Shown piece after piece: positions 2,311 through 47,775 of a stretch of 47,775 bases of DNA. Source of the DNA: Actinomycetota bacterium (GTDB lineage: Bacteria > Actinomycetota > Aquicultoria > UBA3085 > Oleimmundimicrobiaceae); NCBI GenBank assembly GCA_037441605.1, contig JBBIRY010000003.1, forward strand, positions 1-47,775. The letters run 5' to 3'. Each line of letters opens with the position of its first letter. The stretch's first letter is position 1. The position numbers were made by a program, and so were the translations under genes. The notes under the pieces were generated by a model. The model did no database searches. It was not told the DNA's origin and saw only the letters and a program-made list of their open reading frames with translations.

Positions 2311-3464
2311 GACAGGCAGAAAGGATAGCCAACCTACCACCCTACCTCTTCGCCGAGATAGACAAGAAGATAGCCTTAAAGAAAGCTGCCGGAGTTGATG
2401 TCATAAGCCTTGGGATAGGAGATCCGGTAGAGCCGACCCCTGGCCACATAATCGACGCCCTATGCAAGGAAGCCAAAAACCCCGAAAATCACCGGTATCC
2501 TTCTTACTTCGGCATGCCCGCTTTCAGGAGAGCGGCAGCCGATTTCTGCAAAGAACGATTCGGACTGAGCTTTGATCCGGATAAGGAGATTTTGCCCCTG
2601 ATCGGCTCAAAAGAGGGGATAGCCCATATCTTTTTGGCCTTCCTCGATCCGAAGGATATAGCTTTGGTCCCGGATCCAGGTTATCCCGTCTATAATGTCG
2701 GAACCTTACTTGCCGGCGGAACTCCACACTTCATGCCGCTCAAGAAGGAGAATGATTTTCTGCCTGACTTCTCCAAGATAGATTCCAAGACCGCCAAGCA
2801 GGCAAAGCTGATGTTTTTGAATTACCCAAACAACCCGACATCAGCGGTAGCCGACATTTCCTTCTTTCAAGAGGCGCTCGACTTTGCAAGAAGCCATGAC
2901 ATCTTGATCTGTCATGACAATGCCTACTCCGAGATAGCTTTCGACGGTTACGTGCCGCCGAGTTTCTTGGAGCTACCGGGGGCAAAGGAGCAGACAATAG
3001 AGTTTCACTCCCTCTCTAAAACCTACAACATGACCGGCTGGCGCATCGGTTTTGCGGCCGGTAACGAATATGCCGTGAGGGCCTTGGGAAGGGTTAAGAC
3101 CAACGTCGATTCGGGAATCTTCAACGCGATCCAATATGCCGGAATGGCGGCCTTAGGCGGAAGTCAGGCTCCGGTCAAGGAGATGTGCGATATATATCAG
3201 AGGAGAAGGGACCTGGTTGCTAAAGCCCTTACCGAAATGGGGCTCTCCTTCTCTCTGCCCAAAGCCAGCATATATTTCTGGGTCGAGGTGCCAAAGGGTT
3301 ATACCTCGGCCGGATTTGCAACCCACATCCTCGATCAGGCTGGAGTCGTCATCTCTCCTGGAAGCGCCTACGGCAGCCACGGAGAGGGATATATCAGAAT
3401 TACTTTGAGTGTCAAAGACGATCGACTCATAGAGGCCTTGGAAAGGGTCAAAAAGGCGCTCTAA
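2307..3464 (+). CDS. dapL: LL-diaminopimelate aminotransferase (PLP class I/II)
   Basis: [36 protein letters not shown]; 4-nt overlap with dapF. Confidence 0.85.
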
Positions 3465-3479
3465 AGGATTCGTGGCCGG

Positions 3480-4598
3480 TTGATCGAACAAGAGAGCAAA
3501 AAAGAGCGGGCCATCCTGGTCTTTCTCTTAGAAGACCGAAAACCCAAAGAGGCCGAAGACGGTCTGATTGAACTATCAGAGCTCGCAAAGACCGCCGGGG
3601 CCGAAATAGTATCCCATGTAACTCAGAGAGCCTTGCCCGATACCAAGACCTTCATCGGATCGGGGAAGGCTCAAGAGGTCGCCCTGATTGCCGAAGAACT
3701 TGACGCCGACATAATCATCTTCAATGAAGACCTCACCCCATCTCAACAGGCCAATCTCGAAAAGATCATAAAGCGAAGAATTGTGGATCGAACCACTTTG
3801 ATTTTAGATATCTTCGCTCAGAGGGCCAAAACCAAAGAGGGAAAGATCCAGGTAGAGATGGCTCAACTTACCCACGCGCTCTCGAGGCTCAAGGGTAAGG
3901 GCGTTATGCTCTCCAGACTTGGCGGCGGCATCGGAACCAGAGGCCCCGGAGAAACCAAGCTTGAGGTTGAGCGAAGAGGGATAGGAAAAAGGATAGCTCG
4001 CCTAAAGGATGAGCTGGAAAGGATTGAGCGAGTTAGAAAAACCCAGAAGAAGCAGCGCGTAAAGAGGGGCCTTTATCGCATAGCTTTGGTTGGATATACG
4101 AACGCCGGTAAATCGACGCTCTTAAACGTCCTGACCGATTCGAACGTTTTAGTCGAAGATAAGCTCTTTGCTACTTTGGATCCGACCTCGCGCCGCCTTC
4201 GCCTATTGAGCGGTGAGGTGGCAACCATATCCGATACCGTTGGCTTCATTAGGGGCCTTCCGCATCATTTGGTTGCGGCCTTCAAGTCGACTCTTGAGGA
4301 AGTGGTCGAAGCCGACCTTTTGCTCCATGTGATCGATGGGAGCAACCCCGCCTTCGAGCAGCAAATAATCGCTGTCGAGAAGATCTTAAAGGATTTAAAA
4401 GCTTTTGGTTTAAGAATAATCCCGGTATTCAACAAGATCGACCTCTTGGAGAATGAAGCCTTGCTTAAGCTAAGATCAGCCTATGCAGACGCCGCCTTTC
4501 TCTCAGCCAAGAGCGGGGTGGGCTTAAGCGAGCTTTTAGAAATGGTCATTGGCGAAATTGAAGAGGGTCTTAGAGAGAGAGTGTCAGATCCGTCTTAA
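3480..4598 (+). CDS. hflX: GTPase HflX
   Basis: GGGIGTRGPGET, GYTNAGKST, LFATLD, DTVGFI, NKID. Confidence 0.97.
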   Translation: MIEQESKKERAILVFLLEDRKPKEAEDGLIELSELAKTAGAEIVSHVTQRALPDTKTFIGSGKAQEVALIAEELDADIIIFNEDLTPSQQANLEKIIKRRIVDRTTLILDIFAQRAKTKEGKIQVEMAQLTHALSRLKGKGVMLSRLGGGIGTRGPGETKLEVERRGIGKRIARLKDELERIERVRKTQKKQRVKRGLYRIALVGYTNAGKSTLLNVLTDSNVLVEDKLFATLDPTSRRLRLLSGEVATISDTVGFIRGLPHHLVAAFKSTLEEVVEADLLLHVIDGSNPAFEQQIIAVEKILKDLKAFGLRIIPVFNKIDLLENEALLKLRSAYADAAFLSAKSGVGLSELLEMVIGEIEEGLRERVSDPS

Positions 4599-5195
4599 AA
4601 GGGATGTCACTTTGCCGATTATCTTGGCGTCCTTTGTCAGAATCGGCTCCATTAAGGAGTTTTCAGGCCTAAGTTCTATGTGATTAGATCTCTTGAAGAA
4701 TCTTTTTATTGTCGCTTCACCATCTATTATTGCAACTACTATGTCGCCGTCGCTTGCCGAATCCTGCTTTCTAGCAACAAGATAATCGCCATTCAAGATG
4801 GCAGCATCGATCATGCTGTCTCCCTTGACCTCAATTACGAAAGAATCATCCATAGCGAAGTCCCTGGGTAAGACTAAAACCTCTTCAACGTTCTCTTCGG
4901 CGAAGATGGGGGTGCCCGCCGCAGCCCTTCCAACCACAGGCACGACCCTTGCTCGGGTGGAGTTCGAAAGCTCTTGGGAAACCCGCTCTTTCAGCACCTC
5001 GATGGTTCTGGGTTTAGCCGGATCCCTCTTTATATAACCGAGCTTCTCCAGCGCGATTAGATGGCTGTGGACAGTCGATGTCGAAGAGAGGCCGATCGCC
5101 TCACAGATCTCCCTGACAGAGGGGGGAAACCCCTTGGCCGCGATCTCGCTCAATATATAGTTATAGATCTCCTTCTGTCTTTTGCTGGCCTCCAT
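4584..5195 (-). CDS. lexA: SOS repressor LexA
   Basis: PPSVREIC HTH, Ala-Gly cleavage site (AAGTP), GDSM serine, ATIKR lysine; AAGGAGG RBS. Confidence 0.97.
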   Translation of the reverse strand: MEASKRQKEIYNYILSEIAAKGFPPSVREICEAIGLSSTSTVHSHLIALEKLGYIKRDPAKPRTIEVLKERVSQELSNSTRARVVPVVGRAAAGTPIFAEENVEEVLVLPRDFAMDDSFVIEVKGDSMIDAAILNGDYLVARKQDSASDGDIVVAIIDGEATIKRFFKRSNHIELRPENSLMEPILTKDAKIIGKVTSLLRRI

Positions 5196-5215
5196 GAACT
5201 GCCTCCTTTTTTAGG

Positions 5216-5245
5216 ATTATAACAATCAAAGGTGCGCTTTAGCAA
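5216..5245 (-). promoter_or_regulatory. Putative sigma-70-type lexA promoter
   Basis: Minus strand TTGCTA-18 nt-TATAAT with TGn extension. Confidence 0.7.
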
Positions 5246-5256
5246 ACATAGGTTCG
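5243..5256. promoter_or_regulatory. LexA (SOS) box, Gram-positive type
   Basis: CAAAC-ATAG-GTTCG, one mismatch to CGAAC-N4-GTTCG; overlaps the lexA -35. Confidence 0.82.
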
Positions 5257-5318
5257 ATTGATAAAAAATTTAAAGAAATTGCCAAATTGGTCTTGCTAAT
5301 TCTTTTTTTTAGTGATAA

Positions 5319-5334
5319 ACACAATATATAGGGT
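5319..5334. promoter_or_regulatory. NrdR box 1
   Basis: ACACAATATATAGGGT vs consensus acaCwAtATaTwGtgt. Confidence 0.88.
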
Positions 5335-5863: not shown

Positions 5864-7990
5864 ATGCTGGCAAGGAAGATAAACGTCATCAAGACCGTAA
5901 ACGGAAAAAACGACGACGCAACAGATATCGCTCTATTGGTGAGCACGTCATCCCAACAAGAGATAAATGTCTGGGATAAGGAAAAGATAGTCAATTCGCT
6001 CATAAAGGAGACGAATATAACGAGCGACCTCGCTCACGAGATTGCCGATGCCGTCGAGAACAAAGTCATTGAGAGCAATCTAAAAGACATCACTACAAGT
6101 ATAATCCGCGAGCTTGTTGATACCGAGCTGCTTCAGCGGGGCCTCACCATAGCTCATAAACGCCACTCTCACTTGGGCCTGCCGATGTATGACGTCGAGC
6201 GGATAATCTTCAACGCCAACAAAGAAAATAGCAACACCACCCATAATCCCGAGTCGATCAACTTGACCATTGCCGAATCAATACTGAAGGAGTTTGCCAT
6301 AAGACGAGTCTTCAGCGAAGATGTGGCCTTGGCTCATATGGTTGGTGATGTGCACCTTCATGATTTAGGCTTTATAGTGCGCCCTTATTGCGGTGGGCAT
6401 TCACTGGAATATATCAAGAAGTACGGTCTGAGTCTGCCCAACATAACCAGCACCTCAAAACCGGCAAAACACGCCGAGGTCTTGATCGGCCACATGGTTA
6501 AGATGGCTTCTTCCCTCCAATCCCACTATGCAGGGGCTATCGGGTGGGAAGCGGTTAATATGTTTTTTGCCCCTTATCTTGTGGGCCGCTCATATGATGA
6601 GATAAGGCAGCTCGCCCAGATGCTTATCTATGAATTCAATCAGCTTGCTGGTGCAAGGGGATCGCAGGTGGTTTTCACTGACTTCAATCTCTACTGGAAC
6701 ATACCGGCCCACTTCAAAGATACTGAAGCGATTGGGCCGGGCGGTAAGCATACCGGCAAGAAATACTCAGAGTATGAGAAAGAGTCTCAGATGTTCCTGA
6801 AAGCAATGTTCGAAGTCTATCTGGAGGGCGACGCTATGGGCAAGACCTTCGTCTTCCCAAAACCGCTTCTCCACATAAGCAACGACTTCTTCAAGAGCGA
6901 AGGCCACGATGAGTTTTTGAATCAGGCTTGCGAAGTAGCCAGCCGTCAAGGGATTACCTACTTCGTCTTCGACCGAGGTGATGAGGTAACGGTCTCGCAA
7001 TGCTGTCGTTTGAAGCTTAGGCTAAACGAGACCGATCTCGCTGAAACCAAGAGCCCCGAGAAGATGAGATTTTCGGCCTTGCAGAATATAACCATTAACC
7101 TGCCAAGAATTGCCTACAAAGCAGGGCAGAACGACCAGCTTCTTTTCATGGAGATAAACAAGGCTCTTGAACTCGTGGCCAAGGCCCACCTTCAAAAGAA
7201 AGCCTTCATCAAAGAGCTATTAGATCTCGGTCAAGAGGGACCGCTCGCTATGCTTTGCGCAAAGAAGGACGGGGAGCCCTACCTAAGATTGGAGAGATTA
7301 ACCTACCTTGCGGGAATCCTTGGGTTAAATGAAATGGTTGAGACTCATCTAGGCAAACAGCTTCACGAATCCGATGAGGCTTTGCGCTTCGGACTTAAGG
7401 TAATCTCCCATATGAGTTTGAAATGCAAACAACTCTCTGAACAATACGGTGTCAATATCGTTTTGGAGGAGTCTCCGGCTGAATCAAGCGGCTATCGCTT
7501 GGCCAAGTTGGATATGAAGTATTATCCGCGTCAAACAAGAAAAGTCATCAAGGGTAGCTTTGAGAATGGAGAATACTATTATACCAACAGCATCCATCTG
7601 GCAGTTGATGCAGACATTGACTATATCGAGCGAGTCGAAAAACAAAGCCTGTTTCATCCTCTGATCGAGGCTGGAGCCATCGTTCATATCTGGCTTGGTG
7701 AGAACGAGCCCGACCCAAAATCAATCAAGGAATTTGTGGTTAAAACCTTCCGCAATACCAATGCGGCTCAAATTGCTTTCAGTCCTGAATTTACGGTCTG
7801 CAACAATTGCAAGAGAACGTCAAGGGGCCTTACCGCCCATTGCCAGCTCTGTGAGTCAGATGATGTCTATGGCATCACAAGGATAGTCGGTTACTTCTCT
7901 AAGATTTCCACCTGGAATAAGGGTAAGATATCTGAGCTTAAAGAGAGGATTCGCACAAAATTGTATAAGGAGGATGAGAAGATTGGCTAA
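5864..7990 (+). CDS. nrdD: Anaerobic class III ribonucleoside-triphosphate reductase
   Basis: N-terminal ATP-cone-like region, HLHDL, SQCCRL finger loop, PAES, CNNC/CQLC Zn site, glycyl-radical motif RIVGY. Confidence 0.96.
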   Translation: MLARKINVIKTVNGKNDDATDIALLVSTSSQQEINVWDKEKIVNSLIKETNITSDLAHEIADAVENKVIESNLKDITTSIIRELVDTELLQRGLTIAHKRHSHLGLPMYDVERIIFNANKENSNTTHNPESINLTIAESILKEFAIRRVFSEDVALAHMVGDVHLHDLGFIVRPYCGGHSLEYIKKYGLSLPNITSTSKPAKHAEVLIGHMVKMASSLQSHYAGAIGWEAVNMFFAPYLVGRSYDEIRQLAQMLIYEFNQLAGARGSQVVFTDFNLYWNIPAHFKDTEAIGPGGKHTGKKYSEYEKESQMFLKAMFEVYLEGDAMGKTFVFPKPLLHISNDFFKSEGHDEFLNQACEVASRQGITYFVFDRGDEVTVSQCCRLKLRLNETDLAETKSPEKMRFSALQNITINLPRIAYKAGQNDQLLFMEINKALELVAKAHLQKKAFIKELLDLGQEGPLAMLCAKKDGEPYLRLERLTYLAGILGLNEMVETHLGKQLHESDEALRFGLKVISHMSLKCKQLSEQYGVNIVLEESPAESSGYRLAKLDMKYYPRQTRKVIKGSFENGEYYYTNSIHLAVDADIDYIERVEKQSLFHPLIEAGAIVHIWLGENEPDPKSIKEFVVKTFRNTNAAQIAFSPEFTVCNNCKRTSRGLTAHCQLCESDDVYGITRIVGYFSKISTWNKGKISELKERIRTKLYKEDEKIG

Positions 7991-8225
7991 GATAAAGGTT
8001 TTTATCAAATCAACTTGCCCAAAGTGTCCAGAGGCAAAAGAACTCGCATCGAAATTGGACGGCCCAGAGATTTTTGACGTCGGCAGCGTCGAGGGCTTGG
8101 CTGAGGCAGCTTTCTATCGGGTTCTTACCACACCGTCTTTTGTGGTGACCGATGAGACCGGCAAAGAGATCAGAGCCTGGTTTGGAGAAGTCCCCAACTT
8201 TGCTGAACTTGAACACGTATGCTAG
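7974..8225 (+). CDS. Small thioredoxin/glutaredoxin-like (NrdH-like) protein
   Basis: 83 aa, CPKC motif, TP cis-Pro motif; overlaps nrdD and nrdG. Confidence 0.85.
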   Translation: MRRLAKIKVFIKSTCPKCPEAKELASKLDGPEIFDVGSVEGLAEAAFYRVLTTPSFVVTDETGKEIRAWFGEVPNFAELEHVC

Positions 8226-8956
8226 AGGCGGTCAAGAGCGATGACGGAAAGGCGATAGATATCAGGGGGATACTCCCTGTGTCTATGCTGGATTGGCCGG
8301 GTAAGATTGCTTGTGTAATCTTTTTGGGTGGGTGCAATCTAAGCTGTCCATTCTGTCAGAACCATATTCTGCTTAAAGAAAAGGCGGATAATAACGGTAT
8401 AGATTTTTTAGATATCGAGAGGTATCTGCTGTCCAAGAAAAATTGGTTGGATGGCGTGGTGATTACCGGGGGAGAGCCCTCAATAAACCCTGGACTTGGA
8501 AAGCTTATTTCTAGGCTCAAAGCGATTGGGTATAGGGTTAAACTAGATACCAACGGAACCCGGCCCCAAGTTCTTTCACAGCTAATAAAAGAGGGTTTAA
8601 TAGACTACTTCGCCTTGGATATTAAGACCTCTTTTGACAAGTATGACCTCCTCGGTTCCTCCAAGGCGGAAGGAGAAAGCGCACTTGAAACTATCGATCT
8701 TATCATCGCCTCTGGGCTTGACCACGAGTTCCGAACGACGGTCGTGCCCGGGGTAGTCTCCAAGGAAGATATTATCGCCATCGCATCGATGCTTGGCAAA
8801 AAGGGTGCAAAACGCTACTTCCTTCAACAATACAACCCCAATGATATATTGAGCGGAGAATTCAAAACCCAAAAGCCGTTCAAGGCGGACTTTTTAAAGG
8901 AACTGACCAAGGAAGCAAACAAATTAGTACCCACAGAACTTAGAGGTTGTTCTTAA
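8219..8956 (+). CDS. nrdG: Anaerobic RNR activating radical SAM protein
   Basis: GCNLSCPFCQN (CxxxCxxC), TGGEP, KLDTNG, EFRTT. Confidence 0.92.
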   Translation: MLEAVKSDDGKAIDIRGILPVSMLDWPGKIACVIFLGGCNLSCPFCQNHILLKEKADNNGIDFLDIERYLLSKKNWLDGVVITGGEPSINPGLGKLISRLKAIGYRVKLDTNGTRPQVLSQLIKEGLIDYFALDIKTSFDKYDLLGSSKAEGESALETIDLIIASGLDHEFRTTVVPGVVSKEDIIAIASMLGKKGAKRYFLQQYNPNDILSGEFKTQKPFKADFLKELTKEANKLVPTELRGCS

Positions 8957-10649: not shown

Positions 10650-11243
10650 TTAGCCACCTCTCATCATAATTTGCTTCCTTCCTAGCTCAAATGCTTTCAT
10701 ATTAATCTCTATGAATCTTTCGGGGATGCTCTCTTCGATCGCATCCTCCCAAGCCGATTGTGTGATGGGAAGCCTTTCCTTCAATGTGCCAAGCGTTATC
10801 ATGTTAGCAAATTTAAGGCCGCCAAGTTCAAAAGCTAACTCTTCAGCGTTAAGGGTTAAGAGCTTTTCTGTTTTGTCCTTTAGCTGAGAAATCAAATCGC
10901 TTGGATAATCCATCTTTCCGAGCAATACCGGCATTGGGCTTATGGTTTGCTCGCCCAAGATAAGTTCGCCGCCGGGTTTAAGGTATATCAACCAGCGCGC
11001 CGCTTCTAAGAGCTCAAAGGCCATGAGAATGTCGGCCTCACCCTGAGAGATTATCGGAGAGTAGACCTCTTTGCCAAAGCGAACCATCCCGTAAACGCTC
11101 CCACCCCTTTGGGCCATGCCGTGAATCTCGGAGACCTTCACATCAAACCCCGACTTTAAAAGAGCAAGTGAGACTATCTTGGTAGCCAGGGTTATTCCTT
11201 GACCCCCCACTCCGACCAGAAGTATTGCGCCCTTATCAATCAT
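10650..11243 (-). CDS. iorB: Indolepyruvate:ferredoxin oxidoreductase beta subunit
   Basis: Start moved to ATG 11243 (ATGA overlap with iorA); GVGGQG, SEIHGMAQRGGSV. Confidence 0.95.
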   Translation of the reverse strand: MIDKGAILLVGVGGQGITLATKIVSLALLKSGFDVKVSEIHGMAQRGGSVYGMVRFGKEVYSPIISQGEADILMAFELLEAARWLIYLKPGGELILGEQTISPMPVLLGKMDYPSDLISQLKDKTEKLLTLNAEELAFELGGLKFANMITLGTLKERLPITQSAWEDAIEESIPERFIEINMKAFELGRKQIMMRGG

Positions 11244-12970
11244 GAGTCCACCTCTAAGATGGCTGAAAATTTGCAGACTTTGGCACAGACCCCGCAGCCT
11301 ATGCAAACATTTGCATCTATGCTCAAACCCTTTGCTTTGTCGAAAGAGATGGCCGGACAACCCACTTTAAGACAGCTCAAACATCTGGTGCAGCTCTTTT
11401 TATCTATCGAAAAAGGAGTCTCTTTTTCGCTCAAGATGAGGGCGCACGGACGGGTAGTGATAATAACTGATGGCTCGTCTTTCTCGGTCTCTTCTTTGAT
11501 TGTGGTGAGCGTTTGCTTAAGATCGTATGGATCGATCGTTCTGATGGACCCAACCCCTATCGCTTCGGCCAGTTTCATGAAATCCAGGGCGCGGGTCTCT
11601 TCACCCATGAGGGTTCTGCCGGTGCCGGGGTGGTCTTGCCGTCCGGTCATGGCCGTTATCCGATTATCGAGAATGATTACGGTCGAAGCCCCCTTATTGT
11701 AAACGATATCTATTAGCGGAGTGATGCCCGAATGAACGAAGGTGGAATCGCCGATTACGGCGACTGCTTTGCCAAGATTTGCGCTAGTAGCCTTCTCGAA
11801 ACCAAGCGCCATGCCAACTCCGGCTCCCATGGCAAGGCAGGTATCCATCGCTTCGAATGGGGCAAGTGCGCCCAGCGTATAGCACCCTATGTCCCCCATC
11901 ACGGTTAGCTTGAGCTTATTTAGAGAATGAAAGACTCCGCGGTGGGGACAGCCCGGACACATTAAAGGAGGCCTTGGAGGCAAAGGGGTTTCAATCGCTG
12001 ATGTGGAGTCTCCTTTGGGCAGAGAAAAGGAGTCCCTCAAAATATCGGGGCTTAACTCACCGACCCTTGGGACCAGCTCTTTGCCGAGCACTTTTATGCC
12101 GTGGGCTTTTATGGCGTCTTCGAGGAACGGTTCCAGCTCCTCCACCACATAAACGCTCTTTTTGCCCTTGACGAATGATTCTATGAGACCGAAAGGTAAG
12201 GGGTAGACCATGCCCAGTTTTAAAAAAGATGCGGCTTTGAAGACCTCTTTGGCATGCTGATAAGTTATGCCGCTAGTGATGATTCCTATCTCGCCACCCG
12301 CCTCTTCTACCTGATTTAAGTGGTAAGTGTTTACAAAATCCTCAAGGCGCCTCATCCTTTCAAGCAAGTTTAACCTTTTTTGGCGGGCGTTCTGGGGAAG
12401 CATCACATATTTGGCTATATCTTTTTCGTAAGTTCTGATTGGAATCTTTGTCCTATCGCTGAGTTCGACCTTGGTTTTAGAGTGAGAGATCCGGGTCGTC
12501 ATACGCAACAGTACCGGGGTGTCGAAGTCCTCACTTAACTTGAGGGCTTCTTTGAGATACTCTTTGGCCTCTTGGCTGTCGCTCGGCTCAAGCATAGGAA
12601 TTAAGGAAGATCTGGCATAGTATCTGCTGTCCTGCTCATTCTGTGAACTGTGCATAGAGGGATCATCGGCAACTAGAATTACCAAACCGGCATTGACCCC
12701 GGTATAGGCAGCCGTAAACAAGGGGTCTGCCGCCACGTTCAAGCCGACATGCTTCATCGTTACAAGAGTTCTTGCCCCGCCAAGTGAGGCTCCCATTCCG
12801 ACCTCAAGGGCAACCTTCTCATTGGGTGACCACTGGGAGTTCACTTCCTTATAGTCAGAAAGGTTTTCTAATATTTCAGTGCTCGGTGTTCCGGGGTAGC
12901 CGGCCGCAAAACTGACTCCACCCTCATAGGCGCCCCTAGCTATTGCTTCATTGCCGGAATAAAGTTCCAT
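11240..12970 (-). CDS. iorA: Indolepyruvate:ferredoxin oxidoreductase alpha subunit
   Basis: GNEAIARG, YPGTPSTE, CPGCPH, GDIGCY, GDSTF TPP motif, C-terminal 2x[4Fe-4S]. Confidence 0.96.
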   Translation of the reverse strand: MELYSGNEAIARGAYEGGVSFAAGYPGTPSTEILENLSDYKEVNSQWSPNEKVALEVGMGASLGGARTLVTMKHVGLNVAADPLFTAAYTGVNAGLVILVADDPSMHSSQNEQDSRYYARSSLIPMLEPSDSQEAKEYLKEALKLSEDFDTPVLLRMTTRISHSKTKVELSDRTKIPIRTYEKDIAKYVMLPQNARQKRLNLLERMRRLEDFVNTYHLNQVEEAGGEIGIITSGITYQHAKEVFKAASFLKLGMVYPLPFGLIESFVKGKKSVYVVEELEPFLEDAIKAHGIKVLGKELVPRVGELSPDILRDSFSLPKGDSTSAIETPLPPRPPLMCPGCPHRGVFHSLNKLKLTVMGDIGCYTLGALAPFEAMDTCLAMGAGVGMALGFEKATSANLGKAVAVIGDSTFVHSGITPLIDIVYNKGASTVIILDNRITAMTGRQDHPGTGRTLMGEETRALDFMKLAEAIGVGSIRTIDPYDLKQTLTTIKEETEKDEPSVIITTRPCALILSEKETPFSIDKKSCTRCLSCLKVGCPAISFDKAKGLSIDANVCIGCGVCAKVCKFSAILEVDS

Positions 12971-42081: not shown

Positions 42082-42783
42082 TTAAATACCTTTGGTTTTG
42101 AGCTTGTCCAAAGCGCTCTTTGCAGCTTCCTGTTCGGCGCCCTTCTTGCTCTTGCCCTTTCCGTGGGCGGTCACTTCTTTGGCCAAGCTTACCTCAACTA
42201 TAAAGTCTAGATCATGAAAAGGACCGCTCTCCTCTACCAGACGATAGTTTGGAAGCTCTTTGAAGTGCTTCATCGCGAATTCTTGAAGCTCGGTTTTAAA
42301 ATCAAGGCTCTGTAAGGCTTCGTAATTGGCATTGAGAGAGCTTTTAAATAATTCCAAAACGAAATCTTTGGTTTTGGCGAGCCCTAGGTCGAGATACAAG
42401 GCTGCGATAAGAGCTTCGAAAGCATTCTCCAAAATCGAATCGGAATCTTTAAGCCCCGAGTTCTCGGCCCCTTTGCCTAGCAACAGGTGTTCGCCAAGGT
42501 CGATCGATCTTGCCGCTTTGGCCAAGCTGGTTGAGCTGACTATGGTTGAGCGAAACTTTGCCATCTCACCCTCGTTCATTGCCGGATTTTCCGCATAGAT
42601 GGCTTCGGTTATGATGAACTCTAGAACCGAATCTCCCAAAAATTCCATTCTCTCATTGGATCGAAAAGGCGGATTCTCCGCTGCATAAGAGCTATGAGTC
42701 AACGCTTCCAAAAGAAGGGCTTTGTCATTGAACCGTAAGGAGAGGCTCTCTTCGAATCGGCTTGGGTCTCGAACGCTACGCAT
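42082..42783 (-). CDS. rnc: Ribonuclease III
   Basis: ALTHSSY, NERMEFLGDSVL, dsRBD. Confidence 0.97.
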   Translation of the reverse strand: MRSVRDPSRFEESLSLRFNDKALLLEALTHSSYAAENPPFRSNERMEFLGDSVLEFIITEAIYAENPAMNEGEMAKFRSTIVSSTSLAKAARSIDLGEHLLLGKGAENSGLKDSDSILENAFEALIAALYLDLGLAKTKDFVLELFKSSLNANYEALQSLDFKTELQEFAMKHFKELPNYRLVEESGPFHDLDFIVEVSLAKEVTAHGKGKSKKGAEQEAAKSALDKLKTKGI

Positions 42784-42793
42784 ACGAATGCGC

Positions 42794-44041
42794 CTAAGCT
42801 AAGTCTTGGGGCCTGCCAACAATTAAGCTGGCATTGTGGCCGCCAAATCCAAGCGAATTGGAGAGAGCATACGAGACCTTTTTCTTTACAGCCTTATTGG
42901 GAACATAATTTAAATCGCACTTTGGGTCGGGATTCTCGTAGTTTATGGTGGGCGGAACGATGCCTGAATCGATGGCAAGGGCGCAAGCCACAAGCTCTAT
43001 TCCGCCGGCCGCTCCAAGAGCGTGACCCGTCATCGACTTGGTTGAGCTGACCAAAAGATTGTCAGCGTGATCGGCAAATACTTCTCTTATGGCCATAGTT
43101 TCGAACTCATCGTTTAAGGCCGTAGAGGTCCCGTGTGCGTTTATGTAGTCTATGCTTTCTGGCTTAAGGCCCGCCTCTTCAAGGGCTAATCTCATCGATT
43201 TTGCCGCCCCTTCGCCGCGTGGGGCCGGGGCCGTTATGTGATATGCGTCCGCGGTCGCTCCATAACCGATAAGTTCAGAGTAGATCTTAGCTCCCCGCCT
43301 GAGCGCACCTTCAAGGGTTTCGAGTATGACTATGCCGGCTCCCTCTGCGATGACAAACCCGTCTCTTGCGGCGTCAAAGGGGCGGCTTGCCCTCTTGGGC
43401 TCGTCGTTCCTTATGGAAAGAGCCCTGGCGGAGGCAAATCCGGCAACGGCAAGTGGGGTTACGGGGGCTTCGGTTCCACCGGCTATGGCAATGTCGGCAG
43501 CTCCCCTTCGAATAGTCTCGAAGGCCTCTCCGATGGCATGACTAGCCGAAGCGCAGGCCGTAACGGGAGCAAAATTTACTCCCTTGGCGTTGAAGAAGAT
43601 GGAGATATTTCCTGCGGCGATATCCGGTATCATCATCGGCACCAAGAAGGGACTCACTTTGGAGGGTCCTTTTTCGATGAGGATGCGATTCTGGTCCTCT
43701 AAGGTTCTAAGTCCGCCGATTCCAGATCCGACTATAACGGCGGTCCGGTCTGAGATTGAATCATCGATAGTAAGATTAGCATCATCCAAAGCCAGCTTAG
43801 CAGCCGCAACCCCAAGATGTGAGAAGCGGTCCATCCTTTTAGCCTCTTTGAAGTCCATGAAATCAGCTGGATTGAAGCTTTTGACCTCACCGGCTATCTT
43901 GGAAGTATACTCGCTTGGATCGAAGAGAGTTATCGTATCTACCCCAGACTCCCCGCTCGTCAAAGCCCGCCAGAAATCGTCTTTACCGATACCGGTGGCG
44001 GCTATAGGACCAAGTCCGGTTATGACAACTCTGCGCTGCAA
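42794..44041 (-). CDS. fabF: Beta-ketoacyl-ACP synthase II
   Basis: RVVITG, TACAS, NAHGTST, KSMTGH, NSLGFGG.N. Confidence 0.97.
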   Translation of the reverse strand: MQRRVVITGLGPIAATGIGKDDFWRALTSGESGVDTITLFDPSEYTSKIAGEVKSFNPADFMDFKEAKRMDRFSHLGVAAAKLALDDANLTIDDSISDRTAVIVGSGIGGLRTLEDQNRILIEKGPSKVSPFLVPMMIPDIAAGNISIFFNAKGVNFAPVTACASASHAIGEAFETIRRGAADIAIAGGTEAPVTPLAVAGFASARALSIRNDEPKRASRPFDAARDGFVIAEGAGIVILETLEGALRRGAKIYSELIGYGATADAYHITAPAPRGEGAAKSMRLALEEAGLKPESIDYINAHGTSTALNDEFETMAIREVFADHADNLLVSSTKSMTGHALGAAGGIELVACALAIDSGIVPPTINYENPDPKCDLNYVPNKAVKKKVSYALSNSLGFGGHNASLIVGRPQDLA

Positions 44042-45009
44042 CCTTTGCCTCCCTTAAACGTCTCTTTGAATTCCTTCATCAAGCTTGCGATTATCGTTTT
44101 GACCGGAAGGATGTTAGTTATCTCGCCGACCCGCTCTCCCGAGAAGGCCAATCCTTTTTCCATATCGCCCACTTGGGCTCTCTCTAGGGCTTCGATGATG
44201 CAGTATTTTCGATTGCAGTGTTTGAGACAAACCATGCACTTTTTAATATTTTTGAAGGATGGAATCTTGCCGTCTAAGAGATCCTTAACAAACTGGGTCT
44301 TTATGGCCCGGCCGATCAGACCGACCGGACTTTCGATCAAAATCACATCCTCAGGCCCCGCATCGAGGTAAGCCTGTTTAAGCGAGTCGGCGGCCCCGCT
44401 CTCCTCGCTTGCCGCAAATCTCGTTCCTATCTGAACGCCGTCGGCCCCCATACAGATTGCCTTGGTCATATCCCGGCCGTGTAGAATGCCGCCGGCCGCA
44501 ATAACCGGAATCTTTATCGCATTTACGATGTCGGGCAGTATCGAAAAGAGGGGTTGATCCGTTCCCAGGTGTCCACCGGCCTCTTTGCCCTCAACTATCA
44601 CGGCCGAAGCCCCGAATTTCTCGGCCAACTTAGCGGCCTTGACCGAAGATGCGATGGGAACGATAGGCACATTATACTCTTGGCCGATGGCGAAGACCTC
44701 GCGCGAAAACCCCGCCCCGGCCACAATCAAGTCTATGCCTTCCTTTGCGGCTGCAAGGACCAGATCCAAAAACTCGCGCACGGCAACCATTACGTTTATG
44801 CCGATTATCCCATCACTTAAAGATCTGGCCGTTCTGATGTTCTCTATTAGTTCATCCGGGTGGATGCCGGATGCCGCTATTAGCCCTATTCCGCCTTCGT
44901 TGGCCACGGCGGCCGCAAGGCGTGCCATCGAAATCCTAACCGCCATCCCACCCTGGATTATCGGAACGCTCGGCCTGAGATTGCCGATCTTAAGCTGTGG
45001 AAACTCCAT
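44020..45009 (-). CDS. Nitronate-monooxygenase-family FMN enzyme (FabK/FabX-like) with C-terminal 4-Cys cluster
   Basis: IIQGGM, EAGGHLG, IAAGGI, GVQIGTRF, CMVCLKHCNRKYC; between acpP and fabF. Confidence 0.85.
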   Translation of the reverse strand: MEFPQLKIGNLRPSVPIIQGGMAVRISMARLAAAVANEGGIGLIAASGIHPDELIENIRTARSLSDGIIGINVMVAVREFLDLVLAAAKEGIDLIVAGAGFSREVFAIGQEYNVPIVPIASSVKAAKLAEKFGASAVIVEGKEAGGHLGTDQPLFSILPDIVNAIKIPVIAAGGILHGRDMTKAICMGADGVQIGTRFAASEESGAADSLKQAYLDAGPEDVILIESPVGLIGRAIKTQFVKDLLDGKIPSFKNIKKCMVCLKHCNRKYCIIEALERAQVGDMEKGLAFSGERVGEITNILPVKTIIASLMKEFKETFKGGKGCSAELS

Positions 45010-45040
45010 ATGAATTACTCTCCAAAAATTTATTCGACCT

Positions 45041-45262
45041 TTAAGCTTTGCTTGAGATGTAGGTTACAGCATCGCCGACGGTTAAAATCTTCTCAGCGTC
45101 TTCGTCTGAGATCTCCAAACCAAACTCTTCAAGTTCAACGATATCGAGCGAATCGGCTCCAAGATCATTTAAAAACGATACCTCCGGCTTGATGGCTGAA
45201 CCGTCGACCCCCAATTGATCGATGATGATGCTCTTGACCTTCTCAAAGACTTCTGCTGACAT
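45041..45262 (-). CDS. acpP: Acyl carrier protein (shortened helix II)
   Basis: DLGADSLD phosphopantetheine motif, [12 protein letters not shown]; GGAGG RBS. Confidence 0.92.
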
Positions 45263-45300
45263 TAAACTCCTCCTTGAATTTTTGATTTATGGATTATACC

Positions 45301-46044
45301 TTAGATTACCATTCCGCCGTCAACATTTATGACTTGGCCCGTTATGTAGGCCGATTCATCAGAAGCCAGAAAGGCGATCAGATTGGCCACATCTTCGGGA
45401 CGTCCAAATGCCCCAAGCGGTATCGATGCAATGAGCTTATCTTTCATCTCATCGGCAAGAATATCCGTCATTCTGGTCTCGATGAACCCCGGCGCAACCG
45501 CATTAACCCGAACGCCGCGAAGTGCAAACTCTCTGGCCGCCGCTTTGGTCAGACCAATTATACCAGCTTTTGACGCAGCATAATTGGCTTGGCCGATATT
45601 ACCGGTCACCCCAACGACCGAAGAGAGATTGATTATCGACCCGGACTTGGCTTTGAGCATGGCCTTGGAGGCGGCCTGGATGCAGTTGAAGGTTCCCTTG
45701 AGATTGACGGCTATTACTTGGTCGAACTCCTCCTCTTTCATCCTGATGAGTAGGCTATCTCGGGTTATGCCGGCATTGTTGACCAAGATGTCAATCTTTT
45801 CAAATTCGTTCAAAACCCGCTCGACCATCGCCTTTGTCTCCTTAAAATCGGCAACATCGGCCGCGATATGCAAAGCTCTGACACCTTTCGATGCGATCTC
45901 GTTGACCAAGTCTTCGGTATCCTTCGATGCGGAGGTGCTGTTTACGACTACGTCCGATCCAAGCTCGGCCAAGAGAATCGATGTGGCCCGGCCGATGCCT
46001 TTAGCCCCGCCGGTAACGAGAGCCACCTTTCCTTTTAGATCCAT
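45301..46044 (-). CDS. fabG: 3-oxoacyl-ACP reductase
   Basis: TGGAKGIG, NNAGITRD, YAASK, VDGGM. Confidence 0.96.
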   Translation of the reverse strand: MDLKGKVALVTGGAKGIGRATSILLAELGSDVVVNSTSASKDTEDLVNEIASKGVRALHIAADVADFKETKAMVERVLNEFEKIDILVNNAGITRDSLLIRMKEEEFDQVIAVNLKGTFNCIQAASKAMLKAKSGSIINLSSVVGVTGNIGQANYAASKAGIIGLTKAAAREFALRGVRVNAVAPGFIETRMTDILADEMKDKLIASIPLGAFGRPEDVANLIAFLASDESAYITGQVINVDGGMVI

Positions 46045-46985
46045 TAGACCTCCTTAATCGATGAGAGAGTCGCATTTAAACTCATTGGATCTTCCACATT
46101 TAGGCATTTTGCATCCGGCAGAATCTTTGATATAAGGCCGGATAGAACCCTTTTTGGACCAAGCTCGATAAAGACTGAGGCGCCTGAGCGATCCATCTCT
46201 AATACGCTCTTCACCCATTGGACCGACGACTCCATCTGTCCGCTCAAGGCTTCTTTTAAGGTTTTTGGATCGGTCGAAGCCCTTCCGGTAAGATTCGATA
46301 TGACAGGGATGGAGGCCTCTTTGAATTCGGTTCCTTCCAAAATTTGGGAGAACTTAAGGCTTGCCTTGCTCATCAAAGGTGAGTGGAAGGCGCCGCTAAC
46401 CGCAAGCTCAATGACCCGCTTGGCCCCCGCCGCTTTAAGTTCGTTTATAGCTAGCTCAAGGATGGCAGCCTCTCCTGAAATTATGGTCTGACCGGGAGAA
46501 TTATAGTTAGCTATGGCTATGACGCCCTCTTTGGAAAGGTTTGAGAGGATGGCCTCGATCCGATCGCCCGCGATTCCGATGACGGCCGCCATCTTTCCCG
46601 GATTTTCTGTTGCCGCCTTATCCATGAGGCTTGAGCGCTCCTTAAGCAGTAGCAAGGCCGACTCGAAAGTTAAAACCCCCGCCGAAAGGAGGGCATTATA
46701 CTCTCCCAAGCTGTGCCCCGCCACAAGATCCGCAGCCACGCCTTGAGCCCTTAGGGCAAGCTCACATATGCGATTGGTTAAAAAGATTGCCACTTGTGAA
46801 TTTATCGTTCTTTGAAGTTCATCTTCGGGGCCATTGATTGTGAGGTCCTTTATCTTCCTTTCTAAAATCGCTTCGGCCGTGTCAAAGAGGGCTAAGGATT
46901 CTTGGTCAGACGATATGAAGTCTTTAGCCATCCCCAAATATTGAGAGCCCTGTCCCGGAAAGACGAAGGCTACTTTCTTCTTCAA
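46044..46985 (-). CDS. fabD: Malonyl-CoA:ACP transacylase
   Basis: FPGQGSQ, GHSLGEY, VSGAFHS. Confidence 0.97.
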   Translation of the reverse strand: MKKKVAFVFPGQGSQYLGMAKDFISSDQESLALFDTAEAILERKIKDLTINGPEDELQRTINSQVAIFLTNRICELALRAQGVAADLVAGHSLGEYNALLSAGVLTFESALLLLKERSSLMDKAATENPGKMAAVIGIAGDRIEAILSNLSKEGVIAIANYNSPGQTIISGEAAILELAINELKAAGAKRVIELAVSGAFHSPLMSKASLKFSQILEGTEFKEASIPVISNLTGRASTDPKTLKEALSGQMESSVQWVKSVLEMDRSGASVFIELGPKRVLSGLISKILPDAKCLNVEDPMSLNATLSSIKEV

Positions 46986-47775
46986 GATGGGCCGCCTTTC
47001 GACTTCTTGATTTCGCCAATAAGCGCGGTTAAGACCTCAGCCGTATCACCGACTATGCCATAGGTTGCCGCTTCAAAGATGGGCGCATCGGGGTCTTTGT
47101 CGATGGCGATTATGCAATCTGTGGCCTGGATGCCGGCCACATGGTGAATGGCGCCCGAGATCCCGCAGGCGATATATAACTTTGGAGCGACGGTCTTTCC
47201 GGTCTGGCCGATCTGTTGCTGATAGGGCAGGAGCCCATCATCCACCAGCGGGCGAGTTGCTCCAATCGCGCCGTCCAAAAGTTCGGCAAGTTCTTTTGCT
47301 AGAGCAAACGTAGTTTGAGAAGATGCGCCGCGGCCGCAGCCGACGATGATATCGGCGTCCTCCAGGTTTAAGCTCTCACCTTCATCTTTTATGAATTCTA
47401 GAACCTTCACCCCAGATTTTAATCCTTTGTCCACCGTTTCGTGCATAATTCTAACTTGGTTTTTCGTTGATTTTTTCGGCAGCTTAAAGACGTTTGGACG
47501 GATCGTCGCCATCTGGGGACGTCTTTCAGAGCAGACTATCTCGGCCATGATGTTTCCGCCAAAACCGGGGCAACTGCCTAGAAGCTCTCCGCTCGCTGAG
47601 TCTAAGGCTAGCTCCAAGCAGTCCGCGGTAAGCCCTGTATTTAAGATGGCGGCAAGATAGGGCATCATTGCCCTGCCAAAGGTGGTGGCTCCGGCCAATA
47701 TCACTTCCGGTGAATACTTGGAAAAAAGACCTGCAAACAGCTTTGCAAAGATGACCTCATCAGGCTCGCCAAGAG
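46982..47775 (-). CDS. etfA: Electron transfer flavoprotein alpha subunit (EtfA/FixB), 5'-partial
   Basis: Frame open to the window end; GLTADC, RPQMAT.RP, GRG, QIGQTGKTV.P, GISGAIHH..G. Confidence 0.94.
   Translation of the reverse strand, partial: LGEPDEVIFAKLFAGLFSKYSPEVILAGATTFGRAMMPYLAAILNTGLTADCLELALDSASGELLGSCPGFGGNIMAEIVCSERRPQMATIRPNVFKLPKKSTKNQVRIMHETVDKGLKSGVKVLEFIKDEGESLNLEDADIIVGCGRGASSQTTFALAKELAELLDGAIGATRPLVDDGLLPYQQQIGQTGKTVAPKLYIACGISGAIHHVAGIQATDCIIAIDKDPDAPIFEAATYGIVGDTAEVLTALIGEIKKSKGGPS

Follow-up and report, generated by a model that had tools for sequence, protein, structure and literature searches.

An acyl-CoA dehydrogenase and electron-transfer flavoprotein as a candidate enoyl-ACP reductase in the fatty acid synthesis operon of an Actinomycetota bacterium

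Reductases in which an acyl-CoA dehydrogenase (ACAD) works with an electron-transfer flavoprotein (Etf) include caffeyl-CoA reductase (CarCDE) of Acetobacterium woodii, the butyryl-CoA dehydrogenase complex Bcd-EtfAB, and acryloyl-CoA reductase (AcrABC) of Clostridium propionicum, the last of which is a precedent for a non-bifurcating enzyme of this kind (PMC5861303, PMC5736913). Bifurcating Etfs need the Arg of an RPxFGG motif, and the T. maritima R140Q/M, CarE R203 and LctC R205A variants lose bifurcation, with NADH-to-dye activity nearly all lost in the T. maritima variants and retained in LctC R205A (PMC10734219). An ACAD that acts on acyl carrier protein (ACP), TcsD, has lost the CoA-adenine contacts and has a shortened beta5-beta6 loop (10.1101/736256). 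Here we analyse a stretch of 47,775 nucleotides, referred to as the window (contig JBBIRY010000003.1, assembly GCA_037441605.1), from an Actinomycetota bacterium of the Oleimmundimicrobiaceae, which ends inside an etfA gene lying directly ahead of the fatty acid synthesis (fab) gene fabD. Sequence comparisons make it probable that this Etf and the ACAD encoded upstream of it form an undescribed enoyl-ACP reductase that stands in place of FabK.

The source genome (G000) is 75% complete at 838 kb, and the window is its contig C3. Whole-genome presence and absence were counted in 48 genomes of the same class (the class genomes), and the family was represented by G001, of the same genus, and four further genomes; tallies over 61 genomes include G048, on which no claim is built. 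Families and domains were assigned with profile models (TIGR/NCBIfam and PF) and by sequence matches to PDB entries.

Organization of the operon

The fab region of the window comprises the following features.

47752..47775, minus strand: window contig end, overlapping the final 24 nt of contig C44 with 3 synonymous mismatches and the same peptide
47570..47572, minus strand: Cys codon at the bifurcation-essential Arg of RPxFGG (CarE Arg203, T. maritima Arg140), from alignment to 6fah_A
46982..47775, minus strand: etfA, 3' 263 codons (5'-truncated), PF00766/PF01012, an Etf alpha subunit of CarE/Bcd-Etf type
46982..46985, minus strand: overlap of the etfA stop and the fabD start (TTGA; TGA stop, TTG start)
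46044..46985, minus strand: fabD, malonyl-CoA:ACP transacylase (TIGR00128, 294 bits, over cut-off)
45301..46044, minus strand: fabG, 3-oxoacyl-ACP reductase (TIGR01830, over cut-off)
45041..45262, minus strand: acpP (TIGR00517)
44020..45009, minus strand: short FabX-like FMN flavoprotein of the NMO/FabK family (TIGR03151, 194 bits against a cut-off of 453)
42794..44041, minus strand: fabF, ketoacyl-ACP synthase II (TIGR03150, 627 bits, over cut-off)
42082..42783, minus strand: rnc (RNase III; TIGR02191), the usual downstream neighbour

The gene order given in a preliminary description of this DNA, with etfA overlapping fabD and followed by fabG, acpP, the FabX-like gene and fabF, is confirmed. 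At the other junctions fabD and fabG overlap by 1 nt, gaps of 38 and 31 nt separate fabG from acpP and acpP from the FabX-like gene, the latter overlaps fabF by 22 nt, and 10 nt lie between fabF and rnc, after which smc comes on the minus strand. Scans for promoters and terminators gave counts at chance level (8 against 5.2 expected and 7 against 7.2, respectively).

The operon continues on contig C44 of the same genome, which carries yceD-plsX-fabH-ACAD (3379-4542)-etfB (4545-5330), then a ferredoxin-like ORF and etfA up to codon 79; C44 and the window together match the gene order of the intact G001 locus (L031), and a 6370-nt Logan contig also extends beyond position 47775. The joined operon is plsX-fabH-ACAD-etfB-(ferredoxin)-etfA-fabD-fabG-acpP-FabX-like-fabF. 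All four genes that the preliminary description proposed to seek past the window end (etfB, an acyl-CoA dehydrogenase gene, plsX and fabH) are therefore on C44, and its suggestion that etfA takes the place of plsX and fabH is not upheld, as both lie further upstream with ACAD-etfB-etfA between fabH and fabD. The best PDB matches of EtfA, the sole ETF-alpha match in G000, are CarE (6fah_A, E 8.6e-64) and the C. difficile subunit (5ol2_A). Because etfA stands immediately ahead of fabD in all five other family genomes, as well as in G012, G014, G016, G040 and G049, the adjacency is not due to chance, and the proposed tie between Etf and the fab operon proves to be conserved. Nor does etfA close a separate bcd operon in an arrangement peculiar to this genome: the fab operon itself contains the bcd-like gene, and the same arrangement is met with in several phyla; across genomes it is the order ACAD-etfB-etfA-fabD that is conserved, while the FabX-like gene varies independently of Etf.

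Within the window acpP is short by 15 nt (5 codons) of the recognition helix near 45130 (45125-45135), which are present in Logan contigs of runs X1 and X2 from one study, and the gap is most likely an assembly error. Within etfA (47465-47476), four closely spaced bases of the X1 contig also disagree with the window, a hint of strain variation or of misassembly close to the end of the contig. Elsewhere in the window, positions 5864-8953 encode a class III ribonucleotide reductase (TIGR02487, over cut-off), together with a small thioredoxin-like ORF and NrdG, and positions 10653-12970 encode IorA, the indolepyruvate:ferredoxin oxidoreductase alpha subunit (TIGR03336, over cut-off); as the preliminary description had proposed, these two enzymes support an anaerobic life of the organism.

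Exchange of the ACAD genes and fabK

The interval between fabH and fabD was compared in 20 fabD loci, drawn from the 30 best FabD matches and chosen before the results of the Etf search were seen; it contains ACAD-etfB-etfA in 10 and fabK in the other 10, and the slot in G000 is occupied by ACAD-etfB-etfA. A second fetch added fabH-ACAD at a contig end (G008), five loci with fabH-fabK-fabD, two cut loci with fabK-fabD, and two genomes, G021 and G033, in which the slot is empty. In G021 (L186, L170) fabH adjoins fabD, there is no FabK, FabI, FabV or ACAD match, a FabX-like gene stands alone, and a divergent etfBA pair is present on a 1.6-kb contig.

The same exchange is seen in whole genomes. 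Eleven class genomes have ACAD without FabK, 34 have FabK without ACAD, none has both, and three have neither (G034, 76% complete; G042, 75%; G021, 100%), FabK being called within the class at a TIGR03151 score of at least 357 bits (the curated cut-off is 453, and FabX-like genes score at most 234). ACAD is single-copy and the only ACAD match in all 11 genomes that carry it, these genomes are spread over six families of the class, and a FastTree tree of 32 genomes requires 6-7 changes between the ACAD and FabK states, at least 5 of them forced by starred branches. In G059 (L162:1713-7843) an ACAD-etfB pair is located away from fab genes and divergent from genes that by eye resemble biotin carboxylase and BioY, and the genome has no FabK, FabX or FabI match.

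The search for other enoyl-ACP reductases gave no FabI-level match among the 48 class genomes. FabV was not found in G000, G001, G012, G014 or G049 by a search run without a positive control, nor in G002-G005, G016 and G040 by a later search that did detect FabV in G082. No short-chain dehydrogenase/reductase (SDR) other than FabG, the single PF13561 match in each, and no medium-chain dehydrogenase/reductase (MDR) was found in G000, G001 or G003. FabZ, which makes enoyl-ACP, is present in four of five tested genomes and missing in the 75%-complete G000. A true thiolase, crotonase or 3-hydroxyacyl-CoA dehydrogenase was found in none of the five ACAD genomes tested, four of them near-complete; the thiolase profile gave weak cross-matches at fabH and fabF, except for one match in G049 that was not looked into.

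The ACAD itself has the reductive Bcd proteins 5ol2 and 4l1f as its best PDB matches (E 3e-119; profile 2e-150), and its catalytic Glu363, in the motif YEG, is invariant in 38 of 38 sequences. Its predicted structure (pLDDT 92) has the helix-sheet-helix layout of the ACAD fold. Since enoyl-ACP is made, no known reductase was found, there is no sign of a CoA pathway and the flavoprotein is of the enoyl-thioester-reductase type, the presence of ACAD in the reductase slot suggests a reductase role.

The association extends beyond the class. Among the 80 closest ACAD loci in GTDB genomes, many of them on short contigs, 50 have, within 7 kb and on the same strand, a core fab gene (plsX, fabH, fabD, acpP or fabF), accompanied in 39 of them by etfB; in L110, L114, L116, L128, L138 and L142 ACAD is beside fabD without Etf genes. 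By record title the carriers are Actinomycetota, Nitrospirota, Desulfobacterota, Dehalococcoidia and Elusimicrobiota. When 48 genomes outside the class with fab-linked ACAD, of unknown completeness, were screened for FabK, FabI and FabV, none had FabK over cut-off, and 41 had no FabK of at least 330 bits, no FabI of at least 41% and no FabV; FabK-like genes score 338-345 bits in two of the 48 and 260-308 bits in four others. Two loci that duplicate class genomes (L081 and L082) were excluded from this screen and from the ACAD-residue and Etf-motif counts. In the Nitrospirota loci L084, L085, L086, L089, L094 and L104, ACAD follows a recurring trio of ORFs (~173, 123 and 446-471 aa) that may encode acetyl-CoA carboxylase; in L131 and L157 ACAD-etfB-etfA comes after fabF-rnc and not between fabH and fabD; and in L143 (Spirochaetales) a FabK-family gene directly follows ACAD.

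Etf motifs and a proposed mechanism

The position of the bifurcation-essential Arg was located by aligning EtfA to CarE (6fah_A) and counting by hand. The Cys found there in G000, which thus lacks the Arg expected of group 2 Etfs, is shared by G001, and the other four family genomes have Arg. EtfB is closest to the bifurcating CarD, T. maritima and LctB subunits and in G000 has the GxxSPTxV loop, while its RxGV motif is broken, with the Arg present and Gly-Val replaced (RDDA in G000, RDDS in G001). A 2x[4Fe-4S] domain is fused to 37 of 44 fab-linked EtfA proteins, including those of the other four family genomes, and not to those of G000 and G001. In G001 the ferredoxin is a separate 68-aa ORF with an intact 8-Cys pattern, whose stop overlaps the etfA start (L031:11790-11996); in G000 it is likewise an ORF of its own (L164:5330-5540, on C44), but its frame is interrupted at the first motif, which may be an assembly error. 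Setting aside L084, L124 and L135, in which EtfA is partial or frame-broken, all 37 ferredoxin-fused fab-linked EtfA proteins retain the Arg, as against 2 of 7 unfused ones (3 Cys, 2 Lys). It is replaced by Cys in G000 and G001, by Lys in G014, and by Lys and Cys, respectively, in two Dehalococcoidia.

Given a Cys in place of the Arg, a disrupted RxGV motif in EtfB and a ferredoxin that is not joined to EtfA, the Etf complex of the genus of G000 and G001 is probably non-bifurcating, and we infer that bifurcation has been lost repeatedly among fab-linked Etfs; use of NADH by the Cys form is uncertain. Rnf is present in all five tested genomes. A metagenome scan gave no close relative of the EtfA of this genus, the best being 59%, with a motif pattern that missed 22 of 55 scored rows. 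Second sets of Etf genes on tiny contigs (G001:C57 and G005:C55) were set aside as possible contamination. Other Etf genes of the class (G018, G028 and a second copy in G049; L177, L178, L179) lie away from fab genes, keep the Arg and have next to them, downstream, an oxidoreductase gene (260-510 aa) whose product by eye resembles FixC.

In the mechanism that we propose, Etf would take electrons, from NADH in the ancestral form, and its mobile FAD domain would hand them singly to the FAD of ACAD. The reduced ACAD would then give a hydride to trans-2-enoyl-ACP, with protonation of C2 by Glu363, to yield acyl-ACP for FabF. In most relatives, with the fused 2x[4Fe-4S] domain and the Arg kept as in CarCDE, the step may also reduce ferredoxin that could be reoxidized by Rnf, and in G000 and G001 the enzyme would be non-bifurcating and fed by NADH at a low rate or by reduced ferredoxin. 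Of the two options put forward in the preliminary description, the likely one has Etf donating electrons for enoyl-ACP reduction, and the FabX-like protein as the partner of Etf is not sustained; the partner is likely to be the butyryl-CoA-dehydrogenase-like ACAD encoded directly upstream of etfB-etfA.

Alternative readings and known systems

Several observations weigh against a reductase acting on ACP. The residues Asp239 and Thr365, taken here to be the CoA-adenine-contact positions, are kept in 59 of 59 and 56 of 59 fab-linked ACAD rows, respectively, and the beta5-beta6 loop is full-length; on this mapping the ACAD does not resemble the TcsD type. Basic residues at 173/175/178/196-199/226/236 are enriched relative to 20 catabolic controls, which are biased in composition, and this entrance patch, being largely common to C. 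difficile Bcd, does not demonstrate ACP adaptation. An archaeal ACAD/ETF was unable to run reductively (10.1101/2024.07.05.601840). The genomes compared are kin and not independent, and the tree of state changes is built on the fab-region genes of the operon themselves. MDR-family genes are present in G014 and G012, with a second SDR in G014, and G021, at 100% completeness, has a FabX-like gene alone and no FabK, ACAD or FabI match. No core fab gene is seen at 30 of the 80 close ACAD loci, and outside the class the exclusion is not absolute, with FabI-like genes at 41-44% in 4 of the 48 genomes, FabV in 1 and FabK-like genes at 338-345 bits in 2. As to repeated loss of bifurcation, no more than 4 lineages account for the five Arg losses, and one base change is enough to turn Arg into Cys.

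The FabX-like protein bears on two of the alternatives. H. pylori FabX has a catalytic His182, four Cys for its [4Fe-4S] cluster and an Arg164/Thr130 ACP-recognition element (PMC8626469). The window protein has a catalytic-type His147 (44569-44571) and Cys 258/261/265/270 (44200-44238), its C-terminal half is closest to FabX, and over its whole length it scores higher against FabK than against FabX. The segment corresponding to the Arg164 ACP-docking segment, read via the bridging sequence L191, is ~6 residues shorter and the segment as such is absent. At 194 bits the protein is not a canonical FabK. FabX-like genes occur in 33 of the class genomes: 22 with FabK, 9 with ACAD and 2 with neither. 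In G006 (L037:4075-4789) the gene is in three pieces and may be dispensable, being intact in G026 of the same genus, and in G011 (L190:3522-5499) it lies outside the fab operon and forms a pair with a divergent FabK-family gene.

The first alternative, which we regard as unlikely, is that this Fe-S flavoprotein is the true enoyl-ACP reductase and that ACAD/Etf acts on CoA esters, for example by supplying saturated short or branched acyl-CoA primers for FabH. It would account for G021, for the retention of CoA-type entrance residues in an ACAD encoded next to fabH, and for an ACP-docking segment of FabK length, unlike that of FabX; in Fusobacterium nucleatum, moreover, overexpression of FabX partly offsets inhibition of FabK (PMC11091888). 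However, co-occurrence with canonical FabK in 22 of the 33 genomes argues that the FabX-like protein does not replace FabK, and G014 (99% complete) and G059 (98% complete) have ACAD without any FabK/FabX-family match, that of G014 with etfBA in the operon. Nor would this explain the complete lack of ACAD/FabK co-occurrence in 45 class genomes, and no crotonase, thiolase or hydroxyacyl-CoA dehydrogenase was found that could supply enoyl-CoA. The most likely role of the FabX-like protein is a separate one, in making unsaturated fatty acids.

An exchange of electrons between Etf and the FabX-like protein, for desaturation or reduction of acyl-ACP without O2, is improbable. In its favour, a single operon encodes both in 9 class genomes, the FabX-like protein has the four Cys and the His, and the FabX homologues of anaerobes need an electron acceptor whose identity is an open question in print (PMC11300592). 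Yet 21 of the 33 class genomes with a FabX-like gene have no ETF-alpha match, G014 and G049 have Etf in the operon without a FabX-like gene, 78 of the 80 close ACAD loci lack one (it is found in just 2), and a cognate ACAD is encoded directly upstream of Etf. The FabX-like gene is a bystander to Etf, which is not obligatory as its acceptor, although a secondary link between the two may exist.

We give an equally small chance to an oxidative ACAD/Etf, an acyl-ACP dehydrogenase backtracking to unsaturated fatty acids, with the true reductase an unrecognized gene. Dehydrogenases of the ACAD fold that act on acyl carrier proteins exist (TcsD, 10.1101/736256; MbtN and RedW models), and an Etf that has lost the bifurcating Arg would fit a canonical acceptor role, but the one-for-one exchange with FabK in the same slot is left unexplained, bifurcating-type Etf motifs are kept in most members, and no electron sink was identified, although Etf-quinone oxidoreductase was not searched for. 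Chance insertion of a catabolic bcd-etfBA cassette is the least credible, since, in spite of close homologues away from fab genes (30 of 80 loci; G059), the slot is conserved across six class families and several phyla, ACAD excludes FabK and no beta-oxidation genes were found.

The conserved system is real, and we are fairly confident that it represents known chemistry in a new pathway role. The broader proposal is more tentative and falls a little short of an even chance: that ACAD and Etf constitute a further, unrelated class of enoyl-ACP reductase across many anaerobic phyla, ancestrally bifurcating, so that every round of chain elongation would yield reduced ferredoxin, and that several lineages, including the present genus, independently lost the Arg and the fused ferredoxin to give natural on/off pairs within one family. 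A literature search found no description of an ACAD/Etf enoyl-ACP reductase, subscription papers and supplements being outside its reach. If correct, the assignment would supply the last step that fatty acid synthesis lacks in many uncultured anaerobes, place a new enzyme family beside FabI, FabK, FabL and FabV, and bring flavin-based bifurcation into core biosynthesis. G005 (Arg, fused) and G000 and G001 (Cys, split), with ACADs ~71-73% identical, would form a natural pair in which to study the determinants of Etf bifurcation.

Among the closest described systems is CarCDE (6FAH), which has the same order of ACAD, EtfB and EtfA, gives the best PDB match for both Etf subunits and shares with most relatives the N-terminal 2x[4Fe-4S] domain on EtfA (PMC5861303), but is catabolic with a CoA substrate, whereas the genes described here are in a fab operon and this genus has Cys in place of Arg203 and a detached ferredoxin. 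Bcd-EtfAB (C. difficile 5OL2; A. fermentans 4L1F/4KPU) provides the best ACAD matches, the same position of the catalytic Glu and a reduction of an enoyl-thioester like that proposed here; it differs in working on crotonyl-CoA with thiolase, crotonase and Hbd, which were not found in the five genomes tested. The NCBIfam models that rank highest for ACAD and EtfA are those of AcrABC, none reaching its cut-off; AcrABC, however, acts on acryloyl-CoA, and its lost ability to bifurcate has been attributed to an EtfA insertion and not to a missing Arg (PMC5736913). The FabX-like protein shares with H. pylori FabX (7E1Q) the FMN TIM-barrel family, the catalytic His and the four C-terminal Cys, but is ~35 aa shorter, spaces its Cys x2-x3-x4 as against x3-x3-x11 and is without the Arg164 segment. 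With FabK, FabI, FabV and FabL, the ACAD/Etf system shares an operon slot and the proposed step, while its fold and cofactors are unrelated, an FAD-containing ACAD with Etf taking the place of an FMN TIM barrel or an SDR.

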